Below, piece by piece: positions 2,544 to 56,651 of a stretch of 64,000 nucleotides of DNA (the stretch's first letter is position 1; every line of letters begins with the position of its first letter). The position numbers and the translations under genes were made by a program. Location of the stretch: positions 46,332 to 110,331 of IMG/VR virus record IMGVR_UViG_3300033141_003168, one strand, 5' to 3'. A model generated the notes under the pieces. That model saw only the letters and a list, made by a program, of their open reading frames with translations. It was not told the origin of the DNA and did no database searches. Source of the DNA: a virus.

Positions 2544-2567
2544 ACTACTACGGAAACCGGATTAATT
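2543..2567. repeat. 25-bp dispersed palindrome, copy 1
   Basis: AACTACTACGG-AAA-CCGGATTAATT, directly after a stop codon. Confidence 0.95.
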
Positions 2568-12121: not shown

Positions 12122-12146
12122 AACTACTCCGGTTTCCGTAGTAATT
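12122..12146. repeat. 25-bp dispersed palindrome, copy 3
   Basis: AACTACTCCGG-TTT-CCGTAGTAATT, intergenic. Confidence 0.95.
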
Positions 12147-13742: not shown

Positions 13743-14021
13743 GTGAGTAATAAAGAAAAGCAAGATTGTGCGGAAGCAAGGGATTGCTTGCAAGTACCGT
13801 TTTCAGGTTACATGGTTCTTAAATATCAGAGCGGGAAACCCGTTATTGCCGTTCAATCAACAGGGATAGTTTGGAATGATATTTTCTGTAGTTTGTGTGA
13901 TAAGTCATTGATTGAACAATCAAAAGAATTTCAAACTTTAGTTGCGCGAACACTTGGAGATAGAGATATTATAGTTTCGTTAAAATTGAAGTTACATAGA
14001 TCAGAAGGTGAGGATAAGTAA
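13743..14021 (+). CDS. hypothetical protein
   Basis: AGGAGG RBS; translationally coupled to the next gene. Confidence 0.6.
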   Translation: MSNKEKQDCAEARDCLQVPFSGYMVLKYQSGKPVIAVQSTGIVWNDIFCSLCDKSLIEQSKEFQTLVARTLGDRDIIVSLKLKLHRSEGEDK

Positions 14022-17597: not shown

Positions 17598-17622
17598 AAC
17601 TAATCCGGTAACCGGGGTAATT
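17598..17622. repeat. 25-bp dispersed palindrome, copy 4
   Basis: AACTAATCCGG-TAA-CCGGGGTAATT, intergenic, just before an RBS. Confidence 0.9.
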
Positions 17623-20035: not shown

Positions 20036-20060
20036 AACTACTACGGTTTCCGTAGTAATT
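20036..20060. repeat. 25-bp dispersed palindrome, copy 5
   Basis: AACTACTACGG-TTT-CCGTAGTAATT, intergenic. Confidence 0.95.
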
Positions 20061-23151: not shown

Positions 23152-23174
23152 TTACAACGGTTTCCGTAGTAATT
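23150..23174. repeat. 25-bp dispersed palindrome, copy 6
   Basis: AATTACAACGG-TTT-CCGTAGTAATT, between a stop and the RBS of the M16 peptidase. Confidence 0.95.
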
Positions 23175-26776: not shown

Positions 26777-26784
26777 TCTATAAT
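26756..26784 (+). promoter_or_regulatory. sigma70-type promoter of tnpA (likely leaderless transcript)
   Basis: TTTACA-17 bp-TATAAT; the ATG at 26792 lies 8 nt downstream. Confidence 0.7.
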
Positions 26785-26791
26785 GTACAAT

Positions 26792-30825: not shown

Positions 30826-30850
30826 AATTACCCCGGTTCCCGTAGTAATT
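30826..30850. repeat. 25-bp dispersed palindrome, copy 7
   Basis: AATTACCCCGG-TTC-CCGTAGTAATT. Confidence 0.92.
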
Positions 30851-31076
30851 AAATATTTTCCCACTACATAAACTCCGCTTGAAATTCTCCATACTGGCAA
30901 ATTCCCATTATTTTTGAAAATCGGCTTTTATTTTATACCCTTGAGCGCCTCTTCACGCGATTTTTAGACATTGCCGCTTGTCTTACTACATCCTGATAAA
31001 AGGATCGCTTAGAGCGCAACATACATATACTATAACGTATTTATGCGCAGCGGCGATGTTTATTGTTTTGTGAATA

Positions 31077-31101
31077 AATTACAACGGAAACCGTAGTAGT
31101 T
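31077..31101. repeat. 25-bp dispersed palindrome, copy 8
   Basis: AATTACAACGG-AAA-CCGTAGTAGTT. Confidence 0.95.
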
Positions 31102-32725: not shown

Positions 32726-32801
32726 TTTATTTATTCCCTTTCTGTCAACATATTATAATTTATAATATTTGAATTGTAAAATTTTTTTCTTTTGCGTTTT
32801 T

Positions 32802-32826
32802 TATTACTACGGAAACCGGAGTAATT
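32802..32826. repeat. 25-bp dispersed palindrome, copy 9
   Basis: TATTACTACGG-AAA-CCGGAGTAATT. Confidence 0.92.
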
Positions 32827-33019
32827 TCCGATCTTAAACCATCGTGTCTTGCTGAAAATCTTTGTACGGGATATGTTTAAAAAACCGTAGGCCATTCCAG
32901 TACCGGCACATTTTAAGCAGTTCTTCTTGTGTCCAATTCGGAGAAACATATTCTCTTTATTATCGTTTACTTCAATTTCTATTTCGGCCATTATTATCTG
33001 CTTCATCTAACTGCTTCTT

Positions 33020-33864: not shown

Positions 33865-33889
33865 AACTAATCCGGTTTCCGTAGTAATA
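33865..33889. repeat. 25-bp dispersed palindrome, copy 10
   Basis: AACTAATCCGG-TTT-CCGTAGTAATA, intergenic in the - strand operon. Confidence 0.92.
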
Positions 33890-37340: not shown

Positions 37341-37365
37341 AATTACTACGGGAACCGTTGTAGTT
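37341..37365. repeat. 25-bp dispersed palindrome, copy 11
   Basis: AATTACTACGG-GAA-CCGTTGTAGTT. Confidence 0.93.
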
Positions 37366-41379: not shown

Positions 41380-43449
41380 ATGTTGAAAGAAAAACAGAGG
41401 GTTGCGTTATCGTTACTTGACGATATAGTGCGTCTTACGTTAGGCGAATCCATCGGATTTATGAAGCAGGCGGGCGCGAAGCAAATGCAAGATTTTATTC
41501 TCAATCAGGAAAAAGAAGTATTCGATAGCATCCTCGCAGGTTTTGCCGATTCGATTAAGACAACCGATAAGCAACTTGCGGCAAGGGTCGCGAAGCTAAC
41601 CGTTCCTGGCAATTTCACGGTGGCGAAAACCGGTAAGAGAATTTTGAAATCTTCTGCACAGAAGGATTTTCTGAAATGGTCTGAAAAAATTTGGGGCAAA
41701 GATATTTCAAGGAAGATAAATCAGAAGATAAACCGTACTATTGAGAAAGCGTACAGGGCCAGTAAACAGTTTGCAGCCTCATCCGGCAACCTTCCGAATA
41801 TCTGGACTGCGAAGGACACGCGGGCATTAAACTTACTGGATAAGGGGTTTACTGGTTGGCTGAGTTCCGATTATATCCGCGTTTCTGATCCGAGGATCAA
41901 AAATATTCTGAAAACCCAATTTGGGAAGGCGGTTGATACAGAAACGATTGCACGAAAACTCGAAGAAAAACTTGGTAATACCTATAAAGATTATAAATCG
42001 TGGAATCAATTAGCAAGTTATCAAGTAAACCTTGCACGAAACGCCGGTCAGATTTATACTTATCAACAAAGCGGTATCACCGAAATTCAATACACCGCAA
42101 TTATCGACAAGCGTACGACTCCGTTCTGTCAGGACATGGACGGCAGGGTGGTGTTTGTTGAAGACGTTACAACACACACAGATAAATTGTTGTCGTTTGA
42201 TAATCCCGACGCTATAAGAGAATTTAAACCGTTTGCATTTTCTGAACAAATAGGTAATACCAAAAAATACAGGCACTTTGCAGGCGGTCATCAAATTAAG
42301 TTTCCAAAAACAAACGACCCAAAGTTAAACAGTAAAACTTTTGACAAGGCTGGCGTAATATTGCCACCGTTTCATAACCTGTGCAGAACAACTACCATAA
42401 TATCTTCAAGAATTGTTTCTGACTTTGTTTCTCCGGTTGCTGCGGTTCCTGTTGGTGTTAAAACACCGGCGATGGCTCCAAGACCACCATTACTTGCTGT
42501 ACCAAAGGGTAAACCACCATCAGTAGCCAGAGCGGTAGAAATGAAACCCGAAAAATTATTTTTTGAACAAATTCAAACGGCTGGTGAAATGGAATTGCCG
42601 GTTGTAAAAGGTGTTATGGAATTATTAAAGAAGAAAGCACCAGATAAATTTTTTCATAATCTTAATTCTCTTAACTTTTTTAATGAAAAGAATGCGGGGC
42701 TTTTATTTAAAAAATGGACGGGCGATAAAATGTCAAAATCAACTGGAGGGTTTTATTCAAAATTAAAAAGAGGCATGGTAGTACGAAATGATATGATACC
42801 TGGACTCGTGATGGACACACCCCTTACGCGCTTACGTCTTGCCGAAGAAGTAGCGTTTCACGAATTAGGTCATCATGTTGAATATAATCTTCTTCTGCAT
42901 CCCAGTTATGTGAAAAAAGGTGCTCCTATATTGTCACGATGGCTGGATTACTCAAGAGCTATAAAACCCATTGATCGAATTACGAGTTATGCAGGAATAA
43001 ATGAAAAAGAACATTTTGCCGAAGCTTTTACTCACTATTTTCGAGGGGGTTCATCTAAGGCAATTTTAAAAGAACGTGAACCAGGAGCGTTTAAGATTAT
43101 GAATGAACTTTCTGAAGCTTTCTCAAAGAGTTTGGCTGTCATGCTAAATGGTTTACTTGGGGAGTTTAATTTTTTGAAGCGGGTAAAGTTATCAAAAGAA
43201 GAAAAGGAGTTAGAAAGAATATCAATTGAAGGCGTTGAATTTCTTTGGGGTGAAATAATACAAGAGAAAAAGGATAAGATTGCTTTTGAAATAGTTACAT
43301 TTCTTTATCCAGGAAATAAATATTTTTCTGAAGCTGTTTTTTGGCATTTTTTACGTAAAGGTTATGATAAAAATGTGGCTGCCAAAATGGAAAAGAAAGC
43401 TAAGAAAATATTAAGTAACGTAACAATCCGCATGTTATCTATTATATAA
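41380..43449 (+). CDS. MuF/SPP1 gp7 head morphogenesis protein fused to a zincin-like metallopeptidase
   Basis: AIIDKRTTPFCQDMDG and PPFHNLCRTT (MuF); FHELGHHV...ITSYA...EHFAEAF (HExxH+E zincin). Confidence 0.88.
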   Translation: MLKEKQRVALSLLDDIVRLTLGESIGFMKQAGAKQMQDFILNQEKEVFDSILAGFADSIKTTDKQLAARVAKLTVPGNFTVAKTGKRILKSSAQKDFLKWSEKIWGKDISRKINQKINRTIEKAYRASKQFAASSGNLPNIWTAKDTRALNLLDKGFTGWLSSDYIRVSDPRIKNILKTQFGKAVDTETIARKLEEKLGNTYKDYKSWNQLASYQVNLARNAGQIYTYQQSGITEIQYTAIIDKRTTPFCQDMDGRVVFVEDVTTHTDKLLSFDNPDAIREFKPFAFSEQIGNTKKYRHFAGGHQIKFPKTNDPKLNSKTFDKAGVILPPFHNLCRTTTIISSRIVSDFVSPVAAVPVGVKTPAMAPRPPLLAVPKGKPPSVARAVEMKPEKLFFEQIQTAGEMELPVVKGVMELLKKKAPDKFFHNLNSLNFFNEKNAGLLFKKWTGDKMSKSTGGFYSKLKRGMVVRNDMIPGLVMDTPLTRLRLAEEVAFHELGHHVEYNLLLHPSYVKKGAPILSRWLDYSRAIKPIDRITSYAGINEKEHFAEAFTHYFRGGSSKAILKEREPGAFKIMNELSEAFSKSLAVMLNGLLGEFNFLKRVKLSKEEKELERISIEGVEFLWGEIIQEKKDKIAFEIVTFLYPGNKYFSEAVFWHFLRKGYDKNVAAKMEKKAKKILSNVTIRMLSII

Positions 43450-43490: not shown

Positions 43491-46400
43491 ATGGATTTAG
43501 AAAAAATTTCAGTACCTTATGAAAACCTCAATCAAATAAAAGAACTCGACGACGACGTACTCCTTGACGATCACCGCTGGATGCATGTTTATTGGGCTAA
43601 CTTAAAACGCGGAAATAAAATGGAGAATTGGGATAAAGAAATCGTAAAGAAAACCCATGCCGCAATAGTACAGGAAATGTTACTTAGATTTTTCTTTCCC
43701 GCGATGGCACTTGAACTCGACCAGACAGAAGAAACTATTAAAGTTGTTACTGAATGGTTAGAATTAGGTGCAATGAAAGTTATAAGTGCCGCAGAGGGAA
43801 TGGATTTAATTCGTACTGAAAGTTTTATTGAAAATGTTCATAAACACACAAAAATTCCACAAGGGATTTTAATTGCACTTTGGAATGTAGTTGAAATGGA
43901 ATTAAATAATCGCGGTATGCCGGGAGGAAATGAACCGTCCTGGAATCAGGAAAAACAACAAAGTGGTTCCGGTCGTGGTTCGGCAGGAAAGCAGAGAGGC
44001 AGTTATAATAGTCCCACGTTCGCCTACATAGCAGTTTACGGCAAAGAACCTGATATACCTTTAAGCGGCAGAATAAACAGCCCTGAGAAGGAATGGAAAG
44101 ATGGTATACTCGTAGACGAACATTTAAAACTCGAATGGCTTGATTCAATCGACGCAATCGAGGAACTTGAGTTGAGAGCTTCATGTGAAGGCCACGGTGA
44201 AAACAGGGTTACGCATGTGGTTGTTCGTTTAAAATCGCGTAACGAAACCGAAAGCAAAAAATTAGTTGAAGTGTTAAACAATAAAGACGATATTTATTCA
44301 AAATATGATGTAGGAACAGAAGGATATCCCCGAATAGTTATTGCGGGAAAAACGTGGTACGGTCAACCAGGTTGGAATGATTGGTGGGAGACTTTATCTG
44401 AAAAAATAAAAACGGCACTAAAAGCAATTAAGAAAGAGCTTGAAGAAAATTTATCAGTAGGAAAATCTTTACTCGTTTGTTCCAATTCGGAATGGTATTC
44501 AAAATATTCTTTACCGATCGCAGAATCTGACATAGAAGAAACGGATTGGATTGAATTTGAAAAAACGAAACCGCCTTTTATGTCGCCCGGTGGCAAGATG
44601 CGGCAATCAAAACAACTTGTAACTTACATACCCGAACATAAGATTTACTGTGAACCGTTTGCGGGGGCGGCAAACGTATTATTTAGGAAAGAACCTTGCG
44701 AAAATGAAATTCTTTCCGATCTTGATTCGGATTTAATTGTTACGTGGAAGTTCATCAAAAGTTGTTCTGAAATTGATTTGGGAAAATTGTCAAGATTTTA
44801 TTGGGAGCGGCCCAAAGATAAAAAACATTTTAAATCTATTTCAGATCAAGAATGCGATAGCATGCTTGATACGGTTTATAAGTTTATGTATGTTCGTTAC
44901 TGGGGTTTCCGAGGCGGTAAAACATTTAGTGAATCAATCGCACAAGATCGCACGGCACTTCAAGGATCGGCATGGGAACGAATTAAAGGGAAAATAGTAC
45001 GGGCTAAAGATCGAGTTAAGAATGTGAAGTTCGAGCGGGCGAATTACGAAGATGCCATCGCAAAACACGATTCCAAAATTACGTTTTTTTATCTTGACCC
45101 GCCTTACGGCAAGACAGGTGCACACTATTGGAAAACTTTAGATTATGAAAAACTCCTAAATGTGGTAAAAAAAATAAGAGGCAATTTTTTATTGCAACTT
45201 CACAATGATGATAAAATAAAAAATTTATTTGGAAAGCATTTTAAAATTTACACAATCACTGCTCGATATATTAGAAATCAATCGTCGCCAGACATGGGAC
45301 AATTATATAATGAGACGGAATTACTTATAAGCAACTATGAATTAAAAACAAGTGCAAGTAAGTCATTTGCAATGGACGATGATCTTGCACCCGTGGCATC
45401 TTCAGGAATAGAGTTGGGTAAAGAAATTCAGTTTGATGACATTCTTTCCGACTTCAACGACGATTATGTAATTGATCCGGCTTTCATTTCTCTTGGCGGG
45501 AACATTCTTTCGGGTGAAACAGATGAAATGGTTGATTACCACGTGAGTGGAAATTTCGGGCAAGATTTCAAAGTGCCACTTGAATTCAGACTTGGACGCG
45601 GTTCATCTTTTACCGAACGGCAGTCAATAAATTATCATGCCGAAAAAACGGATGTAGAATTAGAACCGCTATATGCACTCGTAGCGCGAAGGATAAATAA
45701 GAAAAATACTATCATACAAATGAACTTTACGGATCGCGTTTCTACTCCGCAGAATCCTCCTGATTTAATTACTCCGGAAACCGGAGTAGTTTTTGAAAAA
45801 AGTGGTGAAACAAATCTGATTTTAAAAGAAACCGTCATAAATGAGGCAAAGGCATTTATACTTGTTACGCCATTCGTTTACGTAGTAGGTGGTGTAGTTA
45901 CGCAAGGCGCAACCAAAGGCGATGTAGACATTCTTATTCGAGGACAGTTCGATGAACCGTTTCTTAGTAAAATTACACAACCGCTAATTGATAGATCGAG
46001 TACACCAAAACGACTTCACTTTCTTGACGACAAATATCACGGCCCATTTACTGCTCACGTTCCGATTTATGAATTGATGCTTGTGCCGGTAAGTTTGCTG
46101 GAAAATTCAGATACAAAAAAACAAAGAGTGGCTTCGCCAGAATTAATAAGGGAGGCGGCGCGGTCAAAATCAGAAGATCGTATAGAAATGTTTCGCTTCT
46201 TCACCGCAATGAAACCGACGAAAGGATTTTTTCCGGAACAACGACAAACAATAGATGCGTTTTTATCGCTTTTTAAGGAAGACAATTTTCCAGTAATGGC
46301 GACTAAAAAATATGATGGTATGGCTTCGCTGTGTTGGAAGTCCGGAAAGCGTGTAGAAATATGGTCTATCGAAGGAGAAAATAATACCGACCGTTTTCCG

Positions 46401-49400
46401 AATGTCGTAAAAGAAATTCAGGAACTAAATGCGGATGAACTCGCTTTGCTTATTGAAATTGAAATGTGGGACGACGGGAAACATTTACCGCGCGAAGCGA
46501 CTGTTGGTTATGTACATTCTGATAGTCCCGCTGATGATTCACAGATAACCGCAAACGTGTTTGACATAGTTTACGTTAAGGGCCTTGAGACAGACGTAAA
46601 AGACTTACCAGAGGGCGATATACACAAAGAACCCTTTTCGATACGTGACGACGTTTTGAAGGCACTTTCGTTTGAACAAGAGACCGATGGTGTACCTGAT
46701 CCTAAAATTAAATTGAATCGCACACCGTCGCATAAAGCAGAAAATGCGGAAGAACTAAAAAAACTTACGAATAAATTATCGGCTACTCCGGGATCGGAAG
46801 GGGTTGTTGCCAAACCAGCGAAAGGAACTTACGTGCTTCATGGTCGTCGCGGAGAACAAATTAAGTTTCATGTTTCCGCCGTTGCAAATGTAATCGTAAT
46901 AAAAAGAATTCCCATTTCGGGAGCAAAAAATGTTTACACTTATTTATTTGGTTTTAAAGTTCAAGGACAGGACATTTCCGATAAAAAACGGGTAAGGATG
47001 CGCGGTAAAGAATATCTTTCTTCAGGGAAAACATTTAATACTTCTCTACTCGCAAAAGTCGGTGAAGTAATAGAAATCGAATTTGAACAACTTAATTACA
47101 TTATTAATCTCGATTCCGGCGAAGAAGATGTGACTTTGTGGGCACCGCGAGTAATGAGGAAAATAAATGTCGCAGGAGATTCAATTGCTGGTGTGATTAA
47201 AAAGGCAAAAGATGAAAATATTTTAGTTACGAAGGAAATTGAAAACAAAACGATAGTTTACAAAACGTGGGATAATTATAATGAAAATTTTCTTAAATCA
47301 TTATTTAATGAGTATAATGTAGAATGGATTAAAGATGTTTCTATTAATAATGATTCCTTTAGTAAATCTGATTTTTATAATGATTTTAGTAAAAAAGCTG
47401 ATTCACTTAGCGGTCTTATTTCAATAGACTTATGTAGCGGTGCGGGTGGATTATCGCTCGGTTTAGAAAAGGCTGGATTTTCCACCGCTATTATGTCTGA
47501 CTTAGATGATGATTCAATGATTACGGCAGAAAAAAACTTTAAGAACACTGTTATTTGGAAAGCAGACCTATTTAAATTAGACTTCCAAAAACTTCATAAA
47601 TCACTTAGAGGAAAACAACTTAATCTTCTGGCAGCAGGTCTTCCGTGTCAAGGACATTCAGTCAGAGGTAAAGGTAAACATTCTGAGTCAGTAGATGAAA
47701 TAGAGAATACACACGAGTCTTTTAATAAACTTTATAAATATTTTCTTAAAGGCGTTATGATACTACAACCTGAATTTATTCTTATAGAAAATGTTCCCGG
47801 AATTTTAAGTAATGAAAACGGGAAATATGCTAATTTAATCATATATGGATTAAAAAAATTAAATTACGATGTTGAATATAAAATTTTAAAAGCTGAAGAG
47901 TATGGAGTTCCACAAATAAGAAGAAGAGTCTTTTTTATTGGAAATAGGCTTGGCCTTCCGATAATTTATCCGAGAAGCACCGAAAAAAGAATTTCAACTT
48001 GGGATGCGATTAAGGATTTAAGTAATAAATCTGAAGACGTGGATTTTGGGCACATAATTCCGAAACACTCAACAGAAACCAAAAACAGAATTAGTCAAGT
48101 GAAGCCCGGAAAAAAATATGTAACTGAAAGTGGAAAAGAGGGTTATGCTTTAAGGAGAATACCTAAAGATAAACCAGCTTATACAATACTTGCTTCAACT
48201 ACGCTTATACATCCAACTCTTGATCGTTTTTTAACGCCGCGTGAATGTGCAAGGATACAATCATTTCCTGATTCTTTTAAATTTCATGGAGGTTCTCAAA
48301 GTCAATTCCGGCAGATAGGTAATGCGGTTCCTCCTGAATTAGCAAAAGCCATAGGCTTAGTTATGAAAAAACAATTAGTAAATTACAAAAATTCAAAAGA
48401 AAAAATTTATAAAAATTTTGAAAAACAAAAAGACCCATATATGATTATTCCCGATGAAAATGAAATTTATAATTTTGTAGCACAACATCATGCCAGAGGC
48501 AAAAGTATCCACACCGATCTTCGTATGGAGTCCGAAGATAAAGATTTTCTTATTGGGTACACACTGGACGATCAAATAAAGAGTGCGATTAAAGAACCGA
48601 TTTTAACTTTAGCGCAACTAAAAAAAGTAGATGCAGACGATTCCAATTTCAAAATAAATTGGTCGGATGGAACATGGGATAAAAGAAAACGCGGTGAAGT
48701 GTTAGTAAATGTAAATATCAATACTCAGAAGAAAGCAATAGAACCAGTTGAATGGTTGGGCTATGAAGGAGTTGTTGAAAGCGGTGGCGAAGAAAAACCC
48801 GCACCCGGTGCGACACGATTTTTTCCCGGCGTGTTTCATGTAGTAGATAAAGGCACGGTAGAATATGGTTCGCAACGAAGTTATTTTCATGAGTATTTTT
48901 TAAGCGGAAAAAAATTAAATTATAGAATCATCGTCAGACTTTTAAACCTTCCCGCTGGAACAGAAGGCGATATTCCCAAATCGTGTCTGGTTGCAGATGA
49001 TTTTATTATAGGAAAAGAAGAAAATTTAATTACTACGGAAACCGGATTAGTTTATAAAGATTCGTTGAAAGCAGAGGAAATTTTACCACCTTCGGAGCCT
49101 CAAGAAGTATCAGTACCGGGGCCAATTCGGCTGACCATGAAGCCCATAGATCAAAGACCTTATGTACTTTCAAAGCGAGCAGTCGATAAAGGTTGGATGC
49201 CTCCTGATAAAAAATCGGCTTTGCCAAAACAAATCAGAAAAAAGATTCCTGATGAATTTCAATATTGGAAAGTTACTGGTACGAAGGCGCGAGACATTAG
49301 GGATTCGCTTGTCAAAGCTATTAAAGACGGCGTGGTAAAAATAGAGTTTGAGGAAATTCGTAAACAGGAAGAGGATAAAGAAATCAAGGGTGATTATACT

Positions 49401-49811
49401 TTCAGCTACCAATGGTTCAAGGGGCCGGTTGTAGTACGCGAAGGCCCGTCAAAAGAACAGTGGCATATTTTTCTTGATTTCGGAAAGAAAAAAGTCGCTC
49501 ACATATTGTTACAATCCAACCCCTTGACAGAAAAATCAGTTTCGGCTACAGTGAAACCAGACATAGATAAAGAAGTAATGTCCTTAGAAGGTTTTCAAAA
49601 ACCGGGAACGCTCCTTAACCCAACAAAAGAAACACCATCGTGGGTTAAGATTAAAGATAAGGGAAAAATAATCAAGATGGTAGATAAACCGACTTTCAAA
49701 AAATACGAATTTAAAGGAACCGGTCTGAAAGGGCTTTATACATTAACCGCAGAATCACCAGACTCTAACATTTGGATACTTGAATCATCGGAGCTACCCG
49801 AGGTCAAATAA
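43491..49811 (+). CDS. 2106-aa polyvalent protein: SCEGH domain, Dam-like MTase, 2x nucleotidyltransferase-like, ATP-dependent DNA ligase, C5 cytosine MTase, 2x LigD phosphoesterase-like
   Basis: PGGK..EPFAGAA..FYLDPPY (~44570-45340); VVGG....GDVDILI (~45860-46090); KKYDG (46305-46319), EIE, FD, EGVVAK; DLCSGAGG, LPCQG, ENVPG, QIRRR, QIGNAV (~47415-48370); FVAQHH...HTDLRME (~48470 onward). Confidence 0.88.
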   Translation: MDLEKISVPYENLNQIKELDDDVLLDDHRWMHVYWANLKRGNKMENWDKEIVKKTHAAIVQEMLLRFFFPAMALELDQTEETIKVVTEWLELGAMKVISAAEGMDLIRTESFIENVHKHTKIPQGILIALWNVVEMELNNRGMPGGNEPSWNQEKQQSGSGRGSAGKQRGSYNSPTFAYIAVYGKEPDIPLSGRINSPEKEWKDGILVDEHLKLEWLDSIDAIEELELRASCEGHGENRVTHVVVRLKSRNETESKKLVEVLNNKDDIYSKYDVGTEGYPRIVIAGKTWYGQPGWNDWWETLSEKIKTALKAIKKELEENLSVGKSLLVCSNSEWYSKYSLPIAESDIEETDWIEFEKTKPPFMSPGGKMRQSKQLVTYIPEHKIYCEPFAGAANVLFRKEPCENEILSDLDSDLIVTWKFIKSCSEIDLGKLSRFYWERPKDKKHFKSISDQECDSMLDTVYKFMYVRYWGFRGGKTFSESIAQDRTALQGSAWERIKGKIVRAKDRVKNVKFERANYEDAIAKHDSKITFFYLDPPYGKTGAHYWKTLDYEKLLNVVKKIRGNFLLQLHNDDKIKNLFGKHFKIYTITARYIRNQSSPDMGQLYNETELLISNYELKTSASKSFAMDDDLAPVASSGIELGKEIQFDDILSDFNDDYVIDPAFISLGGNILSGETDEMVDYHVSGNFGQDFKVPLEFRLGRGSSFTERQSINYHAEKTDVELEPLYALVARRINKKNTIIQMNFTDRVSTPQNPPDLITPETGVVFEKSGETNLILKETVINEAKAFILVTPFVYVVGGVVTQGATKGDVDILIRGQFDEPFLSKITQPLIDRSSTPKRLHFLDDKYHGPFTAHVPIYELMLVPVSLLENSDTKKQRVASPELIREAARSKSEDRIEMFRFFTAMKPTKGFFPEQRQTIDAFLSLFKEDNFPVMATKKYDGMASLCWKSGKRVEIWSIEGENNTDRFPNVVKEIQELNADELALLIEIEMWDDGKHLPREATVGYVHSDSPADDSQITANVFDIVYVKGLETDVKDLPEGDIHKEPFSIRDDVLKALSFEQETDGVPDPKIKLNRTPSHKAENAEELKKLTNKLSATPGSEGVVAKPAKGTYVLHGRRGEQIKFHVSAVANVIVIKRIPISGAKNVYTYLFGFKVQGQDISDKKRVRMRGKEYLSSGKTFNTSLLAKVGEVIEIEFEQLNYIINLDSGEEDVTLWAPRVMRKINVAGDSIAGVIKKAKDENILVTKEIENKTIVYKTWDNYNENFLKSLFNEYNVEWIKDVSINNDSFSKSDFYNDFSKKADSLSGLISIDLCSGAGGLSLGLEKAGFSTAIMSDLDDDSMITAEKNFKNTVIWKADLFKLDFQKLHKSLRGKQLNLLAAGLPCQGHSVRGKGKHSESVDEIENTHESFNKLYKYFLKGVMILQPEFILIENVPGILSNENGKYANLIIYGLKKLNYDVEYKILKAEEYGVPQIRRRVFFIGNRLGLPIIYPRSTEKRISTWDAIKDLSNKSEDVDFGHIIPKHSTETKNRISQVKPGKKYVTESGKEGYALRRIPKDKPAYTILASTTLIHPTLDRFLTPRECARIQSFPDSFKFHGGSQSQFRQIGNAVPPELAKAIGLVMKKQLVNYKNSKEKIYKNFEKQKDPYMIIPDENEIYNFVAQHHARGKSIHTDLRMESEDKDFLIGYTLDDQIKSAIKEPILTLAQLKKVDADDSNFKINWSDGTWDKRKRGEVLVNVNINTQKKAIEPVEWLGYEGVVESGGEEKPAPGATRFFPGVFHVVDKGTVEYGSQRSYFHEYFLSGKKLNYRIIVRLLNLPAGTEGDIPKSCLVADDFIIGKEENLITTETGLVYKDSLKAEEILPPSEPQEVSVPGPIRLTMKPIDQRPYVLSKRAVDKGWMPPDKKSALPKQIRKKIPDEFQYWKVTGTKARDIRDSLVKAIKDGVVKIEFEEIRKQEEDKEIKGDYTFSYQWFKGPVVVREGPSKEQWHIFLDFGKKKVAHILLQSNPLTEKSVSATVKPDIDKEVMSLEGFQKPGTLLNPTKETPSWVKIKDKGKIIKMVDKPTFKKYEFKGTGLKGLYTLTAESPDSNIWILESSELPEVK
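45767..45791. repeat. 25-bp dispersed palindrome, copy 12 (intragenic)
   Basis: AATTACTCCGG-AAA-CCGGAGTAGTT, encoding LITPETGVV. Confidence 0.95.
49028..49052. repeat. 25-bp dispersed palindrome, copy 13 (intragenic)
   Basis: AATTACTACGG-AAA-CCGGATTAGTT, encoding LITTETGLV. Confidence 0.95.
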
Positions 49812-49837
49812 AAGTTGATTTGGGAAGGAGGGTAGGA

Positions 49838-51259
49838 ATGAAAATCAATGTACCGTTTCGAGTTCCATTCGAGATAACCAAAACAGGAACCTCGCAAGAA
49901 GGCGACTGGGTACTCGAAGGGTTTTGTGCAACAAGTGACCTTGATCTCCAAGGCGACGTTATTACCGAGGCGGCTTTAAAAGGTTCGGCAAATGACCTGT
50001 TGGAAAATTCGACAGTGTTATTTAATCATGACCAAGATAAGCCGATTGGGAAAACCGTTGAAACCAAAGTTATGAAGATCGACGGTACGCTTGGTCTTTG
50101 GGTTAAAGTTGTGATTTCAAAAACTGACCCAAATCTGTGGACTCAAATCAAGGAAGGTGTACTTAACAAGTTTTCAATTCGCGGCAAAGTGTTAAGGGCG
50201 AAGAAGGAATTCGTCGCGGCACTGGGCCGAATGGCAAACGTCATTTATAAAATGAAGTTAATTGAAAACTCGATAGTTTCCTTACCTGCAAATCCAAAAG
50301 CCCGCGCATTGCGTTGGTATGTTAGTAAAGCACTCGCGGACTTTGAAAGTGAAGGAGGATCGTTAGAAATGAACATTTTGGAAGTATTACTGAAACTGTT
50401 GGGCGAGACAGAAGAGATTAAAGAACTCGCCGCACGTTTCGAGAAATACTGCGAGACAAACAACGTCGAGATTGAAAAATCTACCGACGAGGAATTAACC
50501 GCAGTATTCGTTGAATTTCATAAAGAGGAAATTCAGAAAGGCACTCGTGTTGAAGTTCTTGCTGCAATTGATAAAACCGCAACCGCAATGTCTACACTCG
50601 CAGAAAAACTTCCTGACGAACTGAAAGAAACAGGTCAGGCCGTCACGGATGCAATTAAGGCTGCGAAGGCAATAGCAACGTCGATGCCTGCTACTCCGTA
50701 TCCCGCACCTGCCGCGAAGGATACAGAAGAAGATGACAAAGGTGAGGATGATAAGGATAAAAATGTAGACAACAAGGATGATCCGAATGCGGATGCCGAC
50801 AAAACCTCGAAGTCAAAAGGCGTACTTGGGTTATTGCTTGAATTTATTCAGGGTAAGGCAAAAGAAGCCGAGAAAACAGACGGCGAATTTGACCTTGAGA
50901 AATTCAAAGATGAAATGGGCGCGTTTCTCGAAGAAAAAGCAAATGAGGATAACGCGGCAACACAGAAATCCATCGATGACCTGGGTGTAAACATCGTAAA
51001 GGACATGGGTAAGGCACTTGAAGGTTTAACAAAAACTTTCACTGACAAAATCGAAGACGTTTCAAAAACTCTGACCGGCGCGATTGAAAAATCCGGCGCG
51101 GACATCGTAACACTCAGTGACAAAGTTAAGTCGCTTGAGGAGAAGGTTCCCGGCGCAGGCGAAGACAACGACACACAGCTTGAAGCAGAGAAAGGCGTTT
51201 TTGGAGGCGTATTCGGCAAGGGTAACGTGAAAGGCGCGAGATCGACAGAAAAAAAGTAA
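49838..51259 (+). CDS. HK97-type prohead protease fused to an acidic scaffold region
   Basis: LEGFCAT..LDLQGDVI, LFNHD..KPIG, IKEGVLNKFSIRG, ENSIVSLPANP, then a long acidic helical tail. Confidence 0.92.
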   Translation: MKINVPFRVPFEITKTGTSQEGDWVLEGFCATSDLDLQGDVITEAALKGSANDLLENSTVLFNHDQDKPIGKTVETKVMKIDGTLGLWVKVVISKTDPNLWTQIKEGVLNKFSIRGKVLRAKKEFVAALGRMANVIYKMKLIENSIVSLPANPKARALRWYVSKALADFESEGGSLEMNILEVLLKLLGETEEIKELAARFEKYCETNNVEIEKSTDEELTAVFVEFHKEEIQKGTRVEVLAAIDKTATAMSTLAEKLPDELKETGQAVTDAIKAAKAIATSMPATPYPAPAAKDTEEDDKGEDDKDKNVDNKDDPNADADKTSKSKGVLGLLLEFIQGKAKEAEKTDGEFDLEKFKDEMGAFLEEKANEDNAATQKSIDDLGVNIVKDMGKALEGLTKTFTDKIEDVSKTLTGAIEKSGADIVTLSDKVKSLEEKVPGAGEDNDTQLEAEKGVFGGVFGKGNVKGARSTEKK

Positions 51260-51322
51260 AGCAATAACACTCTTATTGAGTGGTAATAAAAATTCATTTC
51301 AGTATTAAGGAGGATAGCCAGA

Positions 51323-52606
51323 ATGACCAATGAAGAAATTGCAAAAGCAATAGATATGAGCGACCTTGCAAACGGTGAACTAAATACGGAGCAACAGGAT
51401 AAGTTCATCGACATGGTTTATGACCATACGCGGTTACTCAAAGAAGTTAGGCACGAAGAGGTGGACAACCCGAAAGGTGAACTGGGTAAAATGTTCATAG
51501 GCGAACCGATTACCCGCGACGCCTCCGTTGACCCGACCGCAGGGGAAGCGAAACCGAAAACCACGAAGGTGACCTACGAGACTAAAAAGGTTATGTCGTG
51601 GTACGACTTACCGACCGATGTGCTTTTCCGCAACATTGCGAAGGAAGCTTTCGAGGATCAGTTCATGGCACAGGTTACAAAGAGGATCGGCAACGACCTC
51701 GAACTGTTAGCTATTCGCGGAGATCAGGCCGCGTATTCCGGCGATACCACACCAATGGGGTTTCTCCTGCGCGTTCTGAACGGATGGAAATACCAGTCTG
51801 ACTCGTCTCACATTTTCGATGCAGGTGGTGCGTCAATCCAAAAAGGCGTTTTCGCTCGAATGTCCAGGGCATTACCCGAACAGTACAAAGGTGATTCCGG
51901 CCTGCGTTGGATTGCTTCGGAGTCTATCTATCAGGACTGGATGGACACAGTTGCAGATCGTTTGACGGCGGCGGGTGACGATGCACTCGCAGGCAAGGGA
52001 CTCGCTCCTTATGGAATTCCGTTTCTTCGCGTACCGCTTATTCCGTCAAACCTCGACGTAAGTATCCTCGCCGCTTCTGCCGGTTTTGCACTCGGCACAA
52101 GACAAGGCCCGTTCACGTTTACTTCAGCAGACAATGCGATTGAACTGAACATCGATGCCGCAGGCGCAATTGCTTTCACAATGGACATAGGGACTTTTAC
52201 TACGTCCGAAGTAGCGGCTCAGATCAATGCCGCAATGGGAGCCTACGTTGCGTTCACGTCAGGATTCGGTCAGTTACTCTTACAGTCACCGACTACGGGC
52301 GGAGCTTCGACAGTCGAGATTATTGCAGAAGCAAATGATTGTTACGACGTACTGGGTATTACAGTCGGAACGTACACCGGCTCTGCTGCCGCCGCTCCCG
52401 CAAACGTACCGGAAGGCAGTTATATGTTCCTCGCCAACCCGAAGAATCTCATTCACATTATGTTGAAAAAGACTCGTCTTTTCACCGAGTTTAAACCACG
52501 CGCCGACACGCTTGAAGTTACGATCTACAACGAGGTGGATGATATAATGGAGAATAACGATGCAATAGTGAAGTGTATCAACCTTCGCCTGCGGGAACTA
52601 ATCTAA
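51323..52606 (+). CDS. major capsid protein with a ~115-aa inserted domain
   Basis: GELNTEQQDKFI, GNDLELLAIRGD, LNGW, LPEQYK, LANPKNLI; position after the protease. Confidence 0.9.
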   Translation: MTNEEIAKAIDMSDLANGELNTEQQDKFIDMVYDHTRLLKEVRHEEVDNPKGELGKMFIGEPITRDASVDPTAGEAKPKTTKVTYETKKVMSWYDLPTDVLFRNIAKEAFEDQFMAQVTKRIGNDLELLAIRGDQAAYSGDTTPMGFLLRVLNGWKYQSDSSHIFDAGGASIQKGVFARMSRALPEQYKGDSGLRWIASESIYQDWMDTVADRLTAAGDDALAGKGLAPYGIPFLRVPLIPSNLDVSILAASAGFALGTRQGPFTFTSADNAIELNIDAAGAIAFTMDIGTFTTSEVAAQINAAMGAYVAFTSGFGQLLLQSPTTGGASTVEIIAEANDCYDVLGITVGTYTGSAAAAPANVPEGSYMFLANPKNLIHIMLKKTRLFTEFKPRADTLEVTIYNEVDDIMENNDAIVKCINLRLRELI

Positions 52607-52673
52607 AGTAGAAACGGACAAGCCTGGATTTTTTTAAGGACAAGTTTGAACCCAAATTGAGAAGGAGGCAGTT

Positions 52674-53135
52674 ATGCCCTCAGCGTTCAAAATCAGACAA
52701 GGGGCGTCATGGATGGGACGCGCCCCTTCCGGTAAGTTATACCACTTTCTTACTCCCGAAACCATCGTTACTGTTGACTTGGAAAAAGACTTGATTTTTT
52801 TCAGGAAAAACGATAAGCGGTTTGAGGAGTTACGGCTTTCTTCAAACGACTCAGTACCCGACAAGACTGAGGAAGTGAAAGAGAAGGCCGCGTCGTATGC
52901 GTCAATGGCGGATGAACAGTCCGAAACACCGCCTATTCCTGACGAACCGCCACCGGAGGAAGATATGGCTTCCGCAGAAGATGAAGACGATGAAGTTGAA
53001 GCCGCAGAGGAAGATAAACAAGGTTACCGTGATGATCGTCCTGTTTGTCCCTTTTGCAACAAAGACTTCAAAAACCTTGCGGGTTTGAAAGCGCACCAAC
53101 GTGCAAAACATCCCGATGAACTAATCGAGGTTTAA
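52674..53135 (+). CDS. acidic protein with a C-terminal C2H2 zinc finger
   Basis: CPFCNKDFKNLAGLKAHQRAKH. Confidence 0.75.
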   Translation: MPSAFKIRQGASWMGRAPSGKLYHFLTPETIVTVDLEKDLIFFRKNDKRFEELRLSSNDSVPDKTEEVKEKAASYASMADEQSETPPIPDEPPPEEDMASAEDEDDEVEAAEEDKQGYRDDRPVCPFCNKDFKNLAGLKAHQRAKHPDELIEV

Positions 53136-53140
53136 AAGGA

Positions 53141-54073
53141 ATGGATTTTTACTATACTTCAATCGCAAGACTCAGGGCCGAAGGGATGGATGAAACACGC
53201 TATCCTGACGAGTCCCTTTTGCGACGCAGAATTCTGATGCTCTCTAAAATGATTAACCGAATCACAAACCAATATTTTCAGCCGGTTTATGATGCGGAAC
53301 AGAGAATGAGCGGTCGAGATTCTGCTTTGTTGTATTTGTCGAAAAAAGTTCCTATTCTACAGATCGACGAAATCAACTTTCACCCTGAAGGCTCTACAGC
53401 CGACGTAATTGATTCTGACTACTATGTTATTCACCTCGAAAGATTTTTTGCACGACAAGCAGGTTATTACTTACGTGGTGATGCGAGTTTGAGTACCGGA
53501 ACGTGGGAAGAAGGATTTGAGAATTACACATTTAAGGGTTGGTCAGGTTGGTTAGAAGATCGAAGAGAACTCACGATCTCGATTGATACCGATTTAGTTC
53601 AAGACGACGAAGAAGTTTCTGTACCTGACGCGACTGGTTTCGTTGAAGGTGATTTCATAGTCGTTATTGATTCTGTCAATAGTAACAGGTTTGGCACTTT
53701 GATTAACGCGGTTGATTATGGAACGAACAAGATCGCGATTGACAAAGCGCAAACGAGAGGAATAACCTACCCCAGTGCAACATCGAATGTTTTGACGTTC
53801 GGGAGAGTACCTGATTCTATAGTATGGGCGTGTACGAGAATGGTAGTTAATGAGGCGGCTTTACTTGTTCCTGAAAACGGTGATCCCGTTGATCCGGATT
53901 TTGAATCAAGGCTAAAATCCGAAAAGACTGACAACTATTCTTACACGATGTTTTCGCCCAAGGACATGAATGTAGATTCAGGCCAACTTCCACTTGGCAC
54001 TTTCACAGGTGACCCAAAGGTTGATATGGTACTTGCGACTTATGTTGCTCCAGTGGTAGCACTGTCAGTATAA
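53141..54073 (+). CDS. head-tail adaptor (head completion) protein
   Basis: Position; INRITNQYF, VPDSI..AC, KSEKTDNYSY, TGDPKVD. Confidence 0.7.
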   Translation: MDFYYTSIARLRAEGMDETRYPDESLLRRRILMLSKMINRITNQYFQPVYDAEQRMSGRDSALLYLSKKVPILQIDEINFHPEGSTADVIDSDYYVIHLERFFARQAGYYLRGDASLSTGTWEEGFENYTFKGWSGWLEDRRELTISIDTDLVQDDEEVSVPDATGFVEGDFIVVIDSVNSNRFGTLINAVDYGTNKIAIDKAQTRGITYPSATSNVLTFGRVPDSIVWACTRMVVNEAALLVPENGDPVDPDFESRLKSEKTDNYSYTMFSPKDMNVDSGQLPLGTFTGDPKVDMVLATYVAPVVALSV

Positions 54074-54471
54074 TGGCAACACAAATACCTTTAAGAATGA
54101 ATCCTGTAACTGTGAAGTTGCGGAAGTATGAGAAGACGGCGACCATCATGGACGACGACTTCAATGAACCGCAATCAGTTAGGAATTATTCAACGGAATA
54201 TGAGGTTCGTTGCCAAGTAGTTTACGGAATTCAAGATAAGGTGGTTTCCGAATACACTGGTGATGCGTCATTGGTGAAAGGCCATTTGACATTTCGCAAA
54301 CGCGATGTAACTACAGTGATCGAGACAGGAGATAGAATTGTTGAGATAGCAGGCGAATCTTTCGAGTATGAGATTGATGAAATAAGACGCTCGGGACATT
54401 TGAAAGGCAGAGCGAATTTGCTCATGGCTTTTTTTGTAGAACCAGTTGAAAGGAATTCGATGCGGACATGA
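54073..54471 (+). CDS. head closure protein
   Basis: DDDFNEP, TGDRIVEI; position. Confidence 0.6.
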   Translation: MATQIPLRMNPVTVKLRKYEKTATIMDDDFNEPQSVRNYSTEYEVRCQVVYGIQDKVVSEYTGDASLVKGHLTFRKRDVTTVIETGDRIVEIAGESFEYEIDEIRRSGHLKGRANLLMAFFVEPVERNSMRT

Positions 54472-55064
54472 GTATTAAGAAAGTCGGCAACTGGGCAGGC
54501 GGACGCGCTGTTACAAACAGTACGAAGTTTGCGGTTAATATTCAGAAAAAATTCAGCAAAGCACTTATCGTAAATGGAGAAATCCTTCGCGGTGCAATGG
54601 TGAATGGAATCCGAAAGAACGAATTTGGATTAACTCCGCTTTCTGAAATTACTACTACAATAAAGCGTTCCTCAGTACCGCTTGCCGATACCGGTGATCT
54701 AACGAATTCAATTAACGTCAATCTCATTGGCCCTACTGTTGTGTTTGTAGGTATTCCGCGCGGTACGCAGAAGAAAGGTAAGAGCATAGTGCGCGTTGCC
54801 GAGATTATGGAGAACGGGCATTTTACAGGCGTTGATTTAAGTACGCCGAAAGGTAGAAAGTCTTTTGCGGCAATGGCTTACAAATTGCGGAAACGAAACA
54901 AGAAATTTCCGCTCGGCAGTAAAGATGGAAAAAAGAAAGGTTTCATTTACTCACCGCCGAGACCATTTATAGAACCCGCTTGGGATAAGGCTCAACCATT
55001 TTTTTCACTAACTTATGCCGAAGCGGGGCGACAGGTTTGGAAGTCGCAACAGAAGACAGTTTAA
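54468..55064 (+). CDS. neck/tail-completion protein (HK97 gp10 / Mu gpG-like)
   Basis: PLADTGDLTNSI, MENG, PPRPFIEPA. Confidence 0.75.
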   Translation: MSIKKVGNWAGGRAVTNSTKFAVNIQKKFSKALIVNGEILRGAMVNGIRKNEFGLTPLSEITTTIKRSSVPLADTGDLTNSINVNLIGPTVVFVGIPRGTQKKGKSIVRVAEIMENGHFTGVDLSTPKGRKSFAAMAYKLRKRNKKFPLGSKDGKKKGFIYSPPRPFIEPAWDKAQPFFSLTYAEAGRQVWKSQQKTV

Positions 55065-55079
55065 GTTCAGGAGGGCTTT

Positions 55080-55421
55080 ATGCTTTCAAGAAATGTTTAC
55101 AAAACGACCGTTACCGGTGAGGACGTACTTTTTGAAGTGCATCCCGGCAAGGGTACTACTGATTGGAATTTGCTCTCAGTTTTAGTTTCCCGCGATGACG
55201 ACGAGGAAATTGAATTCGCGGTAACCCTTGTGGACATCGACGGTGGCGACGAGTTCAAGATAGGTGAATTTCTTACTTGGGATGACACCAACTTTGTTTT
55301 TTCGGAACTACTCCGGTTAGATCGGAACTTGCTAATCCGCATTACGACAGATGGTGTTACAACAGACGACGTTAGAGTGCGAGTAATCGCAATGTTAAAG
55401 ACTACGGAGTTCACTGAATAA
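55080..55421 (+). CDS. hypothetical structural protein
   Basis: AGGAGG RBS; in the neck module. Confidence 0.6.
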   Translation: MLSRNVYKTTVTGEDVLFEVHPGKGTTDWNLLSVLVSRDDDEEIEFAVTLVDIDGGDEFKIGEFLTWDDTNFVFSELLRLDRNLLIRITTDGVTTDDVRVRVIAMLKTTEFTE

Positions 55422-56651
55422 ATGGCACAAGTAATCTGGAAACCAACCGTACAAGAAACTACTACGGAAACCGGAGTAGTTTTTAATAGCGAAGGTGCGT
55501 CCCTTACTAAACTGAGGAACGGGCTCGGTTCTATTTGGGGTGAATTTCCTACTGACGGTGCTATTGTAACTTTTGCAAGTCACACCGCAAAAGGTATTAC
55601 CGAGATGTTAGGTTTCAAAGCCGACGTGCTTCCTACAGACGAAGCAACATCGGGATCAGTGAATTACCAAGTTTCTTTTGAAGGTGGAAATTGGCAGTAC
55701 TGGACTGGGGCAGTATTTCAGGACGCTGCTTCAAATGAATGGAATACGGATGTTGAATTATCAGTCGGACTTTCGGTTACTGATTCTGTGGACGAGATTC
55801 GTTTTCGCGCCCTCATTTCTCCCGGCTTAACAACGGCTCCGACGTTCCGCAACATTCAGTTCAACTGCGAGTTATCCTATGACTTCGAGGAAGATGTTTA
55901 CCGTACACTACGGCGGTGGGTACAAGACAGGATCGCCGCCCGATTGTACTACAAGGAAGTCCTTATTGGTGCGACAGATAAAGTAACGATACAAGGGCTT
56001 CTTGAAGTCAAGTCAGTCGTGAATGTTTACAATCTTACAAACGACCCAACCCAGTCGGTAAACATTTTCGACTCATTGAATGGTGACGAGGTTACTATGA
56101 CTGCGGTACAAGACGCAGGTGAAATGATTCTTGTTATTTACTTGGGAACGACAGACGTGTTTATTACTGCCGAACCTGAAAGTCATGCTGCTGAACTTCC
56201 CGTGGTAGTGGTTCAAATTTTGAACTTCACCGAGTACAAACCTGAACGTGAAGAAAAACCTTTGCGCGAATATTTGGGTGACCATGTAAAGATCGGACTT
56301 AGGACTCCACCTGCAAGGATGCGATTTGATGTTGTAGTAAATTGCCTTGCACAGAGAAATTCTGTTTCGATTGCTCTCGCAAATTCTGTTTCTAAAATGT
56401 TCAAACTTGGGTATTTGAAGGAGAACAAGCTGACCGCGATAGAAAGCGGGGAAGTAATTGACATACTTAACCTGCAACCTATCATCACCGCCGATGATGT
56501 AACCGAACGGCTTTTTAGAAAGATGGTTCGGTTTACAGGCGCGACATGGGATTGGGGTGGTACGATCCTTGAAACACTCGACACCATCGAAACCATTTAT
56601 TTTGATACAGGCACTACATTGGGTTATCTTGAGAATCTGGAGGTTCAGTAA
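55422..56651 (+). CDS. tail terminator-like protein with an N-terminal extension
   Basis: Position before the sheath; ELPVVVVQ and FDVVVNCLA beta-rich C-terminal domain. Confidence 0.55.
   Translation: MAQVIWKPTVQETTTETGVVFNSEGASLTKLRNGLGSIWGEFPTDGAIVTFASHTAKGITEMLGFKADVLPTDEATSGSVNYQVSFEGGNWQYWTGAVFQDAASNEWNTDVELSVGLSVTDSVDEIRFRALISPGLTTAPTFRNIQFNCELSYDFEEDVYRTLRRWVQDRIAARLYYKEVLIGATDKVTIQGLLEVKSVVNVYNLTNDPTQSVNIFDSLNGDEVTMTAVQDAGEMILVIYLGTTDVFITAEPESHAAELPVVVVQILNFTEYKPEREEKPLREYLGDHVKIGLRTPPARMRFDVVVNCLAQRNSVSIALANSVSKMFKLGYLKENKLTAIESGEVIDILNLQPIITADDVTERLFRKMVRFTGATWDWGGTILETLDTIETIYFDTGTTLGYLENLEVQ
55457..55481. repeat. 25-bp dispersed palindrome, copy 14 (intragenic)
   Basis: AACTACTACGG-AAA-CCGGAGTAGTT, encoding ETTTETGVV. 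Confidence 0.95.

Follow-up and report, generated by a model that had tools for sequence, protein, structure and literature searches.

The window analysed here is a stretch of 64,000 nucleotides (positions 46,332 to 110,331) of the complete genome of an uncultured phage, 110,331 bp in length, IMG/VR record IMGVR_UViG_3300033141_003168. Two genes of its head-to-tail block carry a short palindrome within their coding sequence. The initial annotation had described three such copies, in frame and with an AAA spacer, and all three are confirmed in the 2106-aa and 409-aa proteins. Counted from the first letter of the window, the genes and copies are:

43491..49811, + strand: gene of a 2106-aa polyvalent head-module protein, host of copies 1 and 2, with a D12 methylase (366-593), a ligase domain (929-1121) and a C5 methylase (1312-1626)
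45763..45793, + strand: coding copy 1 (site 1), 17-mer at 45771-45787, codons 759-767 of the 2106-aa protein
49024..49054, + strand: coding copy 2 (site 2), 17-mer at 49032-49048, codons 1846-1854 of the 2106-aa protein
55422..56651, + strand: gene of a 409-aa neck/tail-module protein, host of copy 3, from a widespread family of ~410-430 aa without a Pfam name
55453..55483, + strand: coding copy 3 (site 3), 17-mer at 55461-55477, codons 12-20 of the 409-aa protein

In the genome as a whole this palindrome occurs 23 times, 22 of the copies being strong and one degenerate. In a position matrix scan of the genome the 22 copies score 41-50 bits, compared with at most 10 bits in shuffled sequence, and the window holds 12 motif matches against 0.07-0.34 expected by chance. 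Other copies in the window are:

2547..2563, + strand: intergenic copy whose left arm holds the upstream stop codon
4866..4882, + strand: intergenic copy with a stop codon on one side and the next ribosome-binding site on the other
12126..12142, - strand: intergenic copy, inverted
17602..17618, + strand: degenerate 23rd copy (21.8 bits, against at most 10 in shuffles)
20040..20056, - strand: intergenic copy, inverted
23154..23170, - strand: intergenic copy, inverted
30830..30846, - strand: copy at a convergent gene junction, forming an inverted pair with the copy at 31081, 251 bp apart
31081..31097, + strand: copy at the convergent gene junction
32806..32822, + strand: copy upstream of an HNH gene
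33869..33885, - strand: intergenic copy in a minus-strand block, co-directional with the genes and lying ahead of a ribosome-binding site and an ATG
37345..37361, + strand: intergenic copy ahead of the terminase gene, with an orthologous copy in a sister phage (locus L059, 3648)
59898..59914, + strand: intergenic copy past the second tube gene, with an orthologous copy in the sister phage (locus L176, 11534)

The full element reads TTAATTAC-N13-GTAATTAA and is ~30 bp long (29-31 bp). Its 17-mer core is a 7+3+7 dyad with arms ACTACGG and, in the coding copies, an AAA centre; conservation spans ~31 bp. The copies have an invariant core in common. The right arm is imperfect: the left half of the palindrome is invariant and the right half variable, with positions 13 and 3 paired in just 5 of the 22 copies. 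Three of the 22 strong copies (perhaps four) are coding, and the others fall within the 5.5% of the genome that is non-coding according to our own ORF calls, most of them in the exact interval that separates a stop codon from the following ribosome-binding site. Relative to transcription, 15 copies are oriented with it and seven against it. The possible fourth coding copy, at 32806-32822, would lie in a doubtful 91-aa minus-strand ORF and in another frame. Across 185,579 species genomes (GTDB) and IMG/VR, the 17-mer gives chance-level single matches only; an origin from host REP sequences was dropped for the same GTDB result. The generic outer-arm pattern finds 80 single sites in IMG/VR, where the only real relatives are the loci L176 and L177.

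The three coding 17-mers all begin on a codon boundary, at offsets of 2280, 5541 and 39 from their start codons, and encode the peptides LITPETGVV (site 1), LITTETGLV (site 2) and ETTTETGVV (site 3). That they always share a frame, as first reported, is true of the three copies, but it carries no signal. TAA triplets at offsets 1, 22 and 26 of the full element close two of the three frames on either strand, leaving one open frame per strand, and the shared frame of the coding copies is therefore not evidence of selection. In the AGTAGTT variant of this genome two frames are open, so three copies fall in one frame with a chance of 1/4. An origin of the coding copies by gene fusion was rejected, since neither a relic ribosome-binding site nor an in-frame start codon was found after sites 1-3.

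The surroundings of the coding copies agree only in part with the linker or N-terminal segments initially assigned to them. Site 1 lies ~10-25 residues ahead of the start of a family-conserved core, with the homology boundary at residues 768-794 (~20 distant loci), and site 2 sits in a ~35-aa lineage-specific segment that is missing from distant homologues. These two bear the assignment out, whereas site 3 is written over a segment that every member of the protein family has. A shortage of intergenic space between 37.4 and 59.9 kb, the other circumstance put forward for coding placement, is likewise only partly real: gaps of 41, 63 and 67 nt (at 43.45, 51.26 and 52.6 kb) are free of copies. 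Coding placement is thus not strictly forced, because these gaps of 41-67 nt in the packed block hold no copy.

Close relatives are absent from the INPHARED phage records by DNA and protein search, where the major capsid protein has best matches of only ~30% identity, and scans of IMG/VR and metagenomes with the window's own proteins gave no matches. A sister phage with 50-72% protein identity is represented by the loci L059, L060, L176, L177 and L223. At places matching all three coding copies it carries a palindrome in a version of its own, and four intergenic copies are matched as well (genome 8308, genome 16264, window 37345 and window 59898). At site 1 its palindrome lies in the same linker, ~11 codons off. 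At site 2, L059 has a perfect 14+1+14 palindrome at the aligned codons (15540), and L176 has a different version that is symmetric too. Site 3 aligns codon for codon with the L059 palindrome at 22031, and its third-position identity with the sister phage is 8/9 within the palindrome and 16/31 in its flanks. The peptides at the coding copies differ between the two phages, each genome keeping its own uniform palindrome version. The matching palindromes in a distantly related phage show that it is the DNA site, not the peptide, that is under selection; the copies are set by DNA, and the sister phage has retained their places. Among 62 distant loci with the polyvalent protein, no such palindrome family was found. 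The idea that the TTETG peptide is an insertion fails on alignment of the homologues, with palindrome-sized insertions at 0 of 3 sites: site 3 exists family-wide and has the same length throughout, site 1 is about as long as in the sister protein, and site 2 lies within the larger 35-aa insert.

The palindromes are spaced more evenly along the genome than expected by chance, in agreement with the suggestion of a site every few kb. Genome-wide, the coefficient of variation (CV) is 0.556 and the largest gap is 9.5 kb; in a test prompted by the data themselves, this evenness has P values of 0.0003-0.003 against uniform and intergenic-gap nulls and of 0.008 in a conditional test. The evenness depends on the three coding copies: once they are left out, the CV rises to 0.84 and the largest gap to 22.5 kb, both unremarkable values.

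Other explanations of these copies differ in what they place under selection. It is highly improbable that the peptide itself is selected, for instance for cleavage by a maturation protease or as a motif in folding. The peptide does recur three times, and site 3 fits a family pattern made up of T, one acidic and two hydrophobic residues. However, it is conserved neither in the sister phage nor in the wider family, T[TP]ETG has no further occurrence in ~31,900 proteome residues, and the three sites use identical codons, the chance of the exact DNA given the peptide being ~4e-5 per site. An RNA hairpin in polycistronic mRNA that would direct processing, stabilise the message or weakly terminate transcription, with the coding copies tolerated or causing pausing, is unlikely. 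T7 and SP82 have conserved processing hairpins between cistrons, and the position of most copies between a stop codon and a ribosome-binding site would suit such a signal. All copies can be folded, sites 1 and 3 being the two most stable (-14.5 and -13.2 kcal/mol), and T runs come after the late-region variants. Many copies nevertheless fold weakly (-1.9 to -6.5 kcal/mol), site 2 among the weak ones at only -2.8 kcal/mol. G-U mismatches (9) and A-C mismatches (8) leave no sense-strand signature, about 7 of 22 copies are inverted to transcription while keeping the same asymmetric core, and no Rfam family matches. Where an intrinsic terminator has a G+C-rich stem followed by a U tract, the stems here are AT-rich and fold weakly. 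A terminator scan detects none of the copies and has counts at chance; sigma-70 promoter-like and terminator-like sites occur at chance level, with 0 coinciding with a palindrome copy. Cleavage within the 6.3-kb ORF would, moreover, destroy its message.

Quite unlikely is a reading of the copies as breakage or recombination hot spots, or as a selfish mini-element of the REP or MITE kind, either spreading or being renewed by gene conversion, with the coding copies marking module junctions. The only patches of 75-80% identity between near-identical sister strains surround sites 1 and 2 (L059 against L060, 11341-11640, for site 1; L059 against L176, up to ~15700, for site 2), and in both patches the palindrome is replaced by another symmetric version. 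Site 1 lies just before a junction of variable N-terminal modules (~20 distant loci), and site 2 within a lineage-specific insert. A selfish element would also fit the uniform site version of each genome, and selfish DNA is abundant here (an HNH gene, inteins and an IS607-like element). Against this stand the conserved places between phages whose synonymous sites are presumably saturated, the lack of a length gain at sites 1 and 3 and of visible target duplications, and the lack of a high-copy host or foreign source in species genomes and IMG/VR. No Y1 (RAYT-type) transposase occurs in the scanned proteins, where the only transposase is the IS607 serine type. Rickettsia palindromic elements, which are selfish insertions of 100-150 bp that sit in frame in genes and add residues, also place a palindromic repeat in frame in protein-coding genes. 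In contrast to these, the present palindrome makes no insertion of its own size, and its places are conserved between diverged genomes.

The reading we favour, tentatively, is that the palindrome is a selected cis-acting site throughout the genome that probably docks a two-fold symmetric protein, for which a ParB-like protein is the best candidate. A gene for a two-domain protein of 352 aa resembling ParB, Noc and KorB lies at genome 36431-37489, 8.8 kb before the window. The protein matches PF02195 (ParB_N) with 30.7-33.1 bits (Pfam cut-off 26.3), and its PHROG annotation is ParB-like partition protein. It aligns to ParB, Spo0J and Noc, including the regions of the GxxR and [D/E]NxxR motifs, with some arginines replaced (AGKTRLK against AGERRWR and DNILRR against ENLQR in the alignment to 7bnk). 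Its fold model matches two-domain structures of ParB, Noc and KorB (8qa9), including DNA complexes, with TM-scores up to 0.65 over ~230 columns. An N-terminal CTPase fold and an HTH DNA-binding domain, as in members of the ParB family, are thus encoded on the same replicon as the palindromes. There are 0 palindrome copies in or beside this gene, the nearest being ~2 kb off on each side. The palindrome may serve this protein, encoded by the phage itself, as a docking site.

Selection would hold the palindrome in fixed positions over the full length of the phage chromosome, where it would dock a dimeric, two-fold symmetric DNA-binding protein. With its three TAA triplets, the ~30-bp element would be tolerated almost only between genes, its left arm often providing the stop codon of the upstream gene; the almost exclusively intergenic placement would follow from these triplets. 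In the tightly packed 22.5-kb head-to-tail block, the palindrome would overwrite coding sequence three times in the sole open frame, and the encoded peptides would be a by-product. Proteins of the ParB family load at short palindromes, from which they slide or spread over a few kb, and this would explain the capped distance between sites. We infer that a protein binds, that it is this one and that it needs bounded spacing. Several points speak against the docking model: at 29-31 bp the site is longer than those of ParB, KorB and Noc, which measure 13-16 bp; an invariant left half beside a variable right half is odd for a symmetric dimer; the ParB-like gene has no copy in or next to it; the gaps of 41-67 nt in the packed block are empty; and the 34 sites of the related array in phage Corndog are not evenly spaced. 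It is doubtful, if conceivable, that the palindromes form a lattice of loading sites for a partner-less ParB-type clamp in a lytic-type phage, with a selected upper limit of ~9 kb between sites, strong enough to overwrite the sequence of three virion-module proteins and to maintain those places across ~45% protein divergence. A search for a Tet/JBP dioxygenase partner of the ParB-like protein gave no match, and control genomes were likewise silent, which makes this negative result uninformative.

Among published systems, the nearest analogue is the 17-bp dyad repeat found in Cluster O mycobacteriophages such as Corndog, which has 7-bp arms and a 3-bp AAA/TTT centre (Cresawn et al., 2015; PMC4351075). 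It occurs in dozens of copies, ~11 of them within genes and many in the short gaps between genes, is absent from the host, and has most sites similarly placed in related phages (PMC4351075). The Cluster O genome encodes a ParB-like protein, and a dimeric binder of the repeat was suggested by the authors (PMC4351075). Both systems have an inner CGG-AAA-CCG, 7-bp arms with a 3-bp spacer, many dispersed copies, some of them coding, and a ParB-like gene. They differ in their arms (ACTACGG here, TGTTCGG there), in the unrelated host phylum, and in the ~30-bp length and AT-rich outer arms with TAA triplets found here. Copies here are also far more intergenic and evenly spaced, whereas those of Corndog are clustered (34 sites, CV 1.06). 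The structural role initially proposed is a conjecture, and this closest analogue has no even spacing. The ParB-like proteins of Corndog and of the present phage have the N-terminal domain alone in common (E 1e-4).

Another comparison is offered by KorB of plasmid RK2, which slides and has 12 palindromic OB operators round the replicon, some promoter-distant or in genes (PMC11790492). The likeness lies in a ParB-family fold and palindromic sites dispersed round a replicon, binding being predicted in the present case. The OB site, however, is 13 bp, and KorB has KorA/TrbA and ParA-type partners. The stoperators of L5 and Cluster A resemble the palindromes as many copies of one short site in short intergenic gaps of early and late operons. 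Stoperators, in contrast, are asymmetric 13-mers that follow the direction of transcription and serve as binding sites for a temperate phage's immunity repressor; the palindromic sites are not co-oriented (15:7), and among the proteins scanned there is no integrase or CI-type repressor.

To our knowledge, dispersed phage palindromes have been described (in Cluster O, in 2015) but never explained. The present analysis adds a sister comparison in which coding copies are held by selection on DNA while the peptide drifts, a simple cause for their shared frame, and statistical evidence for a capped distance between sites. It offers a clear case of a non-coding signal constraining protein sequence and, together with the ParB-like gene, a directly testable model for partner-less ParB proteins in lytic phages. 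A second and equally hypothetical candidate binder is a helix-turn-helix/zinc-ribbon protein encoded at genome 35675-36421.

The virus record is complete (110,331 bp, 41% GC, with a 114-bp terminal overlap), and the window is its final 64 kb. The phage is myovirus-like and encodes a terminase, portal, MuF-like protein, S78 protease, capsid protein, sheath and tube proteins. Dispersed over this genome are 22 copies of the 17-mer ACTACGGAAACCGGAGT, found in a search allowing up to three mismatches. A position matrix separates them cleanly from shuffled sequence (41-50 bits versus at most 10) and picks out a further, degenerate copy at window 17602. The conserved stretch measures about 31 bp and has an almost invariant core, TTACTACGGAAACCG, a variable right arm and AT-rich outer arms. 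Coding DNA holds only three, perhaps four, of the 22 strong copies; the others fall in the non-coding 5.5% of the genome, a fraction that rests on our own ORF calls. Copies are typically flanked upstream by a stop codon, which in many cases is a TAA of the element itself, and downstream by the next ribosome-binding site. The coding copies are:

45771, site 1, in ORF 43491-49811 (2106-aa polyvalent protein), frame 0
49032, site 2, in the same ORF, frame 0
55461, site 3, in ORF 55422-56651 (409-aa neck/tail protein), frame 0

A copy at 32806 would be the fourth if the doubtful 91-aa ORF spanning it in a different frame (32731-33006, minus strand) is real. Across the whole genome, right-arm variants sort by region; AATTAAA prevails in the first 49 kb and AGTTT, in many cases with a T run after it, in the late-gene half. 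Where plus- and minus-strand gene blocks converge (window 30830-31097), two copies stand in inverted orientation 251 bp apart, and the five copies in 6.5 kb around them form the genome's densest cluster.

The initial annotation reported palindromes written into genes in a single frame. The in-frame copies are real; their shared frame is a trivial consequence of the element. The full form, TTAATTAC-N13-GTAATTAA, carries TAA triplets starting at offsets 1, 22 and 26, so that frames 1 and 2 are closed and only L-I-T...V-I-x can be read; by symmetry, the opposite strand likewise has a single open frame. In the AGTAGTT variant of this genome, TAA/TAG closes frame 1 and leaves two frames open, so the chance of three copies sharing one is 1/4. 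The codons themselves are more informative. They are identical across the three copies (chance about 4e-5 each, given the peptide), and the rest of the phage proteome contains no T[TP]ETG, so the identity of the coding copies is set at the DNA level.

Comparison with a sister phage strengthens the case for selection on DNA. The polyvalent protein, which carries D12 methylase, ligase and C5 methylase domains, leads to a homolog of 2101 aa (P0006, 58-63% identical) and to 26.3 kb from a metagenome contig of 109.7 kb (L059). Its genes are syntenic with window 33-59 kb, with 50-72% protein identity for most of the larger products. Further pieces of this lineage are the loci L060, L176, L177 and L222-L227. 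Palindromes of this family also occur in the sister, where the centre is distinct (ACTRCGGAWTCCGYAGT). The L059 codons that align with site 2 form a perfect 14+1+14 palindrome reading LITSESDVIN. At site 3, both N-termini align codon for codon (MAQ.W.P, palindrome, SEGA.LTK), with QETTTETGVVF over the palindrome in this phage versus DLITAEPVVII in the sister; 8 of 9 third codon positions match within the palindrome, versus 16 of 31 in the flanks. For site 1, the sister's palindrome is about 11 codons away, within the same linker. Of the intergenic copies, those at genome 8308 and 16264 and at window 37345 and 59898 are matched in the sister at corresponding gene junctions, and at least two copies are found only in the sister (L059 25951, L222 6240). 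Neither a peptide kept where the palindrome is lost nor free synonymous change was found, either of which would have refuted the earlier reading.

The suggestion that the TTETG peptide is an insertion fails at site 3. A word-level search found no homolog of the 409-aa protein; a profile search gives a family of 320 members, all of which have the N-terminal segment (x-T-[YF]-D-x-x-x-[LV]-V), so the palindrome overwrites a pre-existing segment. In two closer members, P0015 and P0016, the peptides at this position are unable to encode it. Site 2 lies within a segment of about 35 aa common only to this phage and its sister. Site 1 precedes by 10-25 residues the point, at about residues 768-794 of the polyvalent protein (window 43491-49811), where homology to some 20 distant phage loci starts abruptly; they match only from there onward, and N-terminal to it they have unrelated modules of 17 to 590 codons.

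Bounded spacing, proposed earlier as a site every few kilobases, is also supported, in a test that the data themselves suggested. The distance from copy to copy never exceeds 9.5 kb, and its coefficient of variation (CV) is 0.556. Uniform placement gives values this low with P = 0.0026 (CV) and P = 0.0007 (maximum gap), and random choice among the 56 intergenic gaps of at least 25 nt gives them with P = 0.00075 and 0.0003, respectively. Removing the three coding copies gives an unremarkable CV of 0.84 and a largest gap of 22.5 kb. With the other 20 copies fixed and three placed randomly in coding DNA, a largest gap this small has P = 0.008. Intergenic gaps of 41-67 nt inside the packed block carry no copy. 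The sister's gaps are 3.4, 7.8, 4.1, 6.5 and 3.9 kb over its 26 kb.

Recognition as DNA is favored over recognition as RNA, since predicted hairpins are weak for many copies (-1.9 to -6.5 kcal/mol), mismatches are balanced (G-U 9 versus A-C 8), about 7 of the 22 copies run against transcription with the asymmetric core unchanged, no copy matches a terminator pattern and an Rfam search gave no match. Under the mechanism that we infer for the palindrome, a candidate binder is a 352-aa ParB-like phage protein. Its ParB_N domain scores above the Pfam cut-off, it aligns to ParB, Spo0J and Noc, with stretches resembling the GxxR and [D/E]NxxR motifs in which some arginines are replaced, and two-domain structures of ParB, Noc and KorB, DNA complexes among them, match its fold model (mean pLDDT 71) at TM-scores up to 0.65. 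A 47%-identical homolog is found on another contig, and a gene for an HTH/double-zinc-ribbon protein adjoins the ParB-like gene. KorB, with 12 dispersed OB palindromes on plasmid RK2 (PMC11790492), is the best-understood mechanistic model. In Cluster O mycobacteriophages, TGTTCGG-NNN-CCGAACA occurs more than 30 times, the centre mostly AAA or TTT; fourteen copies are intergenic and about 11 within genes, most at similar places across five genomes, and every genome has a ParB-like gene, the repeat being without known function (PMC4351075). These phages resemble the present one in dispersed palindromes, some within genes, in places kept among relatives and in the ParB-like gene. However, the 34 sites of Corndog, a Cluster O phage, are not evenly spaced (CV 1.06), unlike those here.

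A rival reading gives the sites a possible part in recombination or gene conversion, because between near-identical sister strains local drops to 75-80% identity occur only around coding palindromes 1 and 2 (chance of both covering a palindrome 0.014, a rough estimate). Over the shared part of the polyvalent gene, L059 and L060 are about 99-100% identical except for a 300-nt patch of about 80% round site 1 (L059:11341-11640). L059 differs from L176 only in a 650-nt patch of about 75% identity round site 2 (L059:15080-15700) and by 11 changes near 16.9 kb. These alignments suggest gene-conversion tracts centred on the two palindromes. At site 2, the inner 13 nt differ at 8 positions between L059 and L176, and both versions are symmetric. 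As a point on the other side of the DNA-or-RNA question, dyads of the sister lineage keep their symmetry through changes of inner sequence (L059 15540, L176 464, L059 25951), which fits strand pairing, or one arm templating correction of the other, better than it fits base-by-base recognition of the inner arms.

In the MuF-like head protein (window 41380-43449), the C-terminal region hits PF07737, the anthrax lethal factor N/C-terminal domain family (E 1.3e-8), and is probably a metalloprotease-like cargo domain. Intein-containing genes at window 14021-16168 and at locus L004:10450-12678 comprise a thymidylate-synthase-like protein with a Hint/intein domain and a MoxR-type AAA ATPase with Hint and a LAGLIDADG homing endonuclease. 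An IS607-like pair resides at window 26783-28560, where a serine recombinase with MerR-type HTH (203 aa) overlaps a TnpB/Cas12f-like gene (389 aa). A 1238-aa protein whose gene runs from locus L005:4417-8133 into window 1-1802 joins a uracil-DNA glycosylase domain to a PHP/DNA polymerase III alpha subunit.
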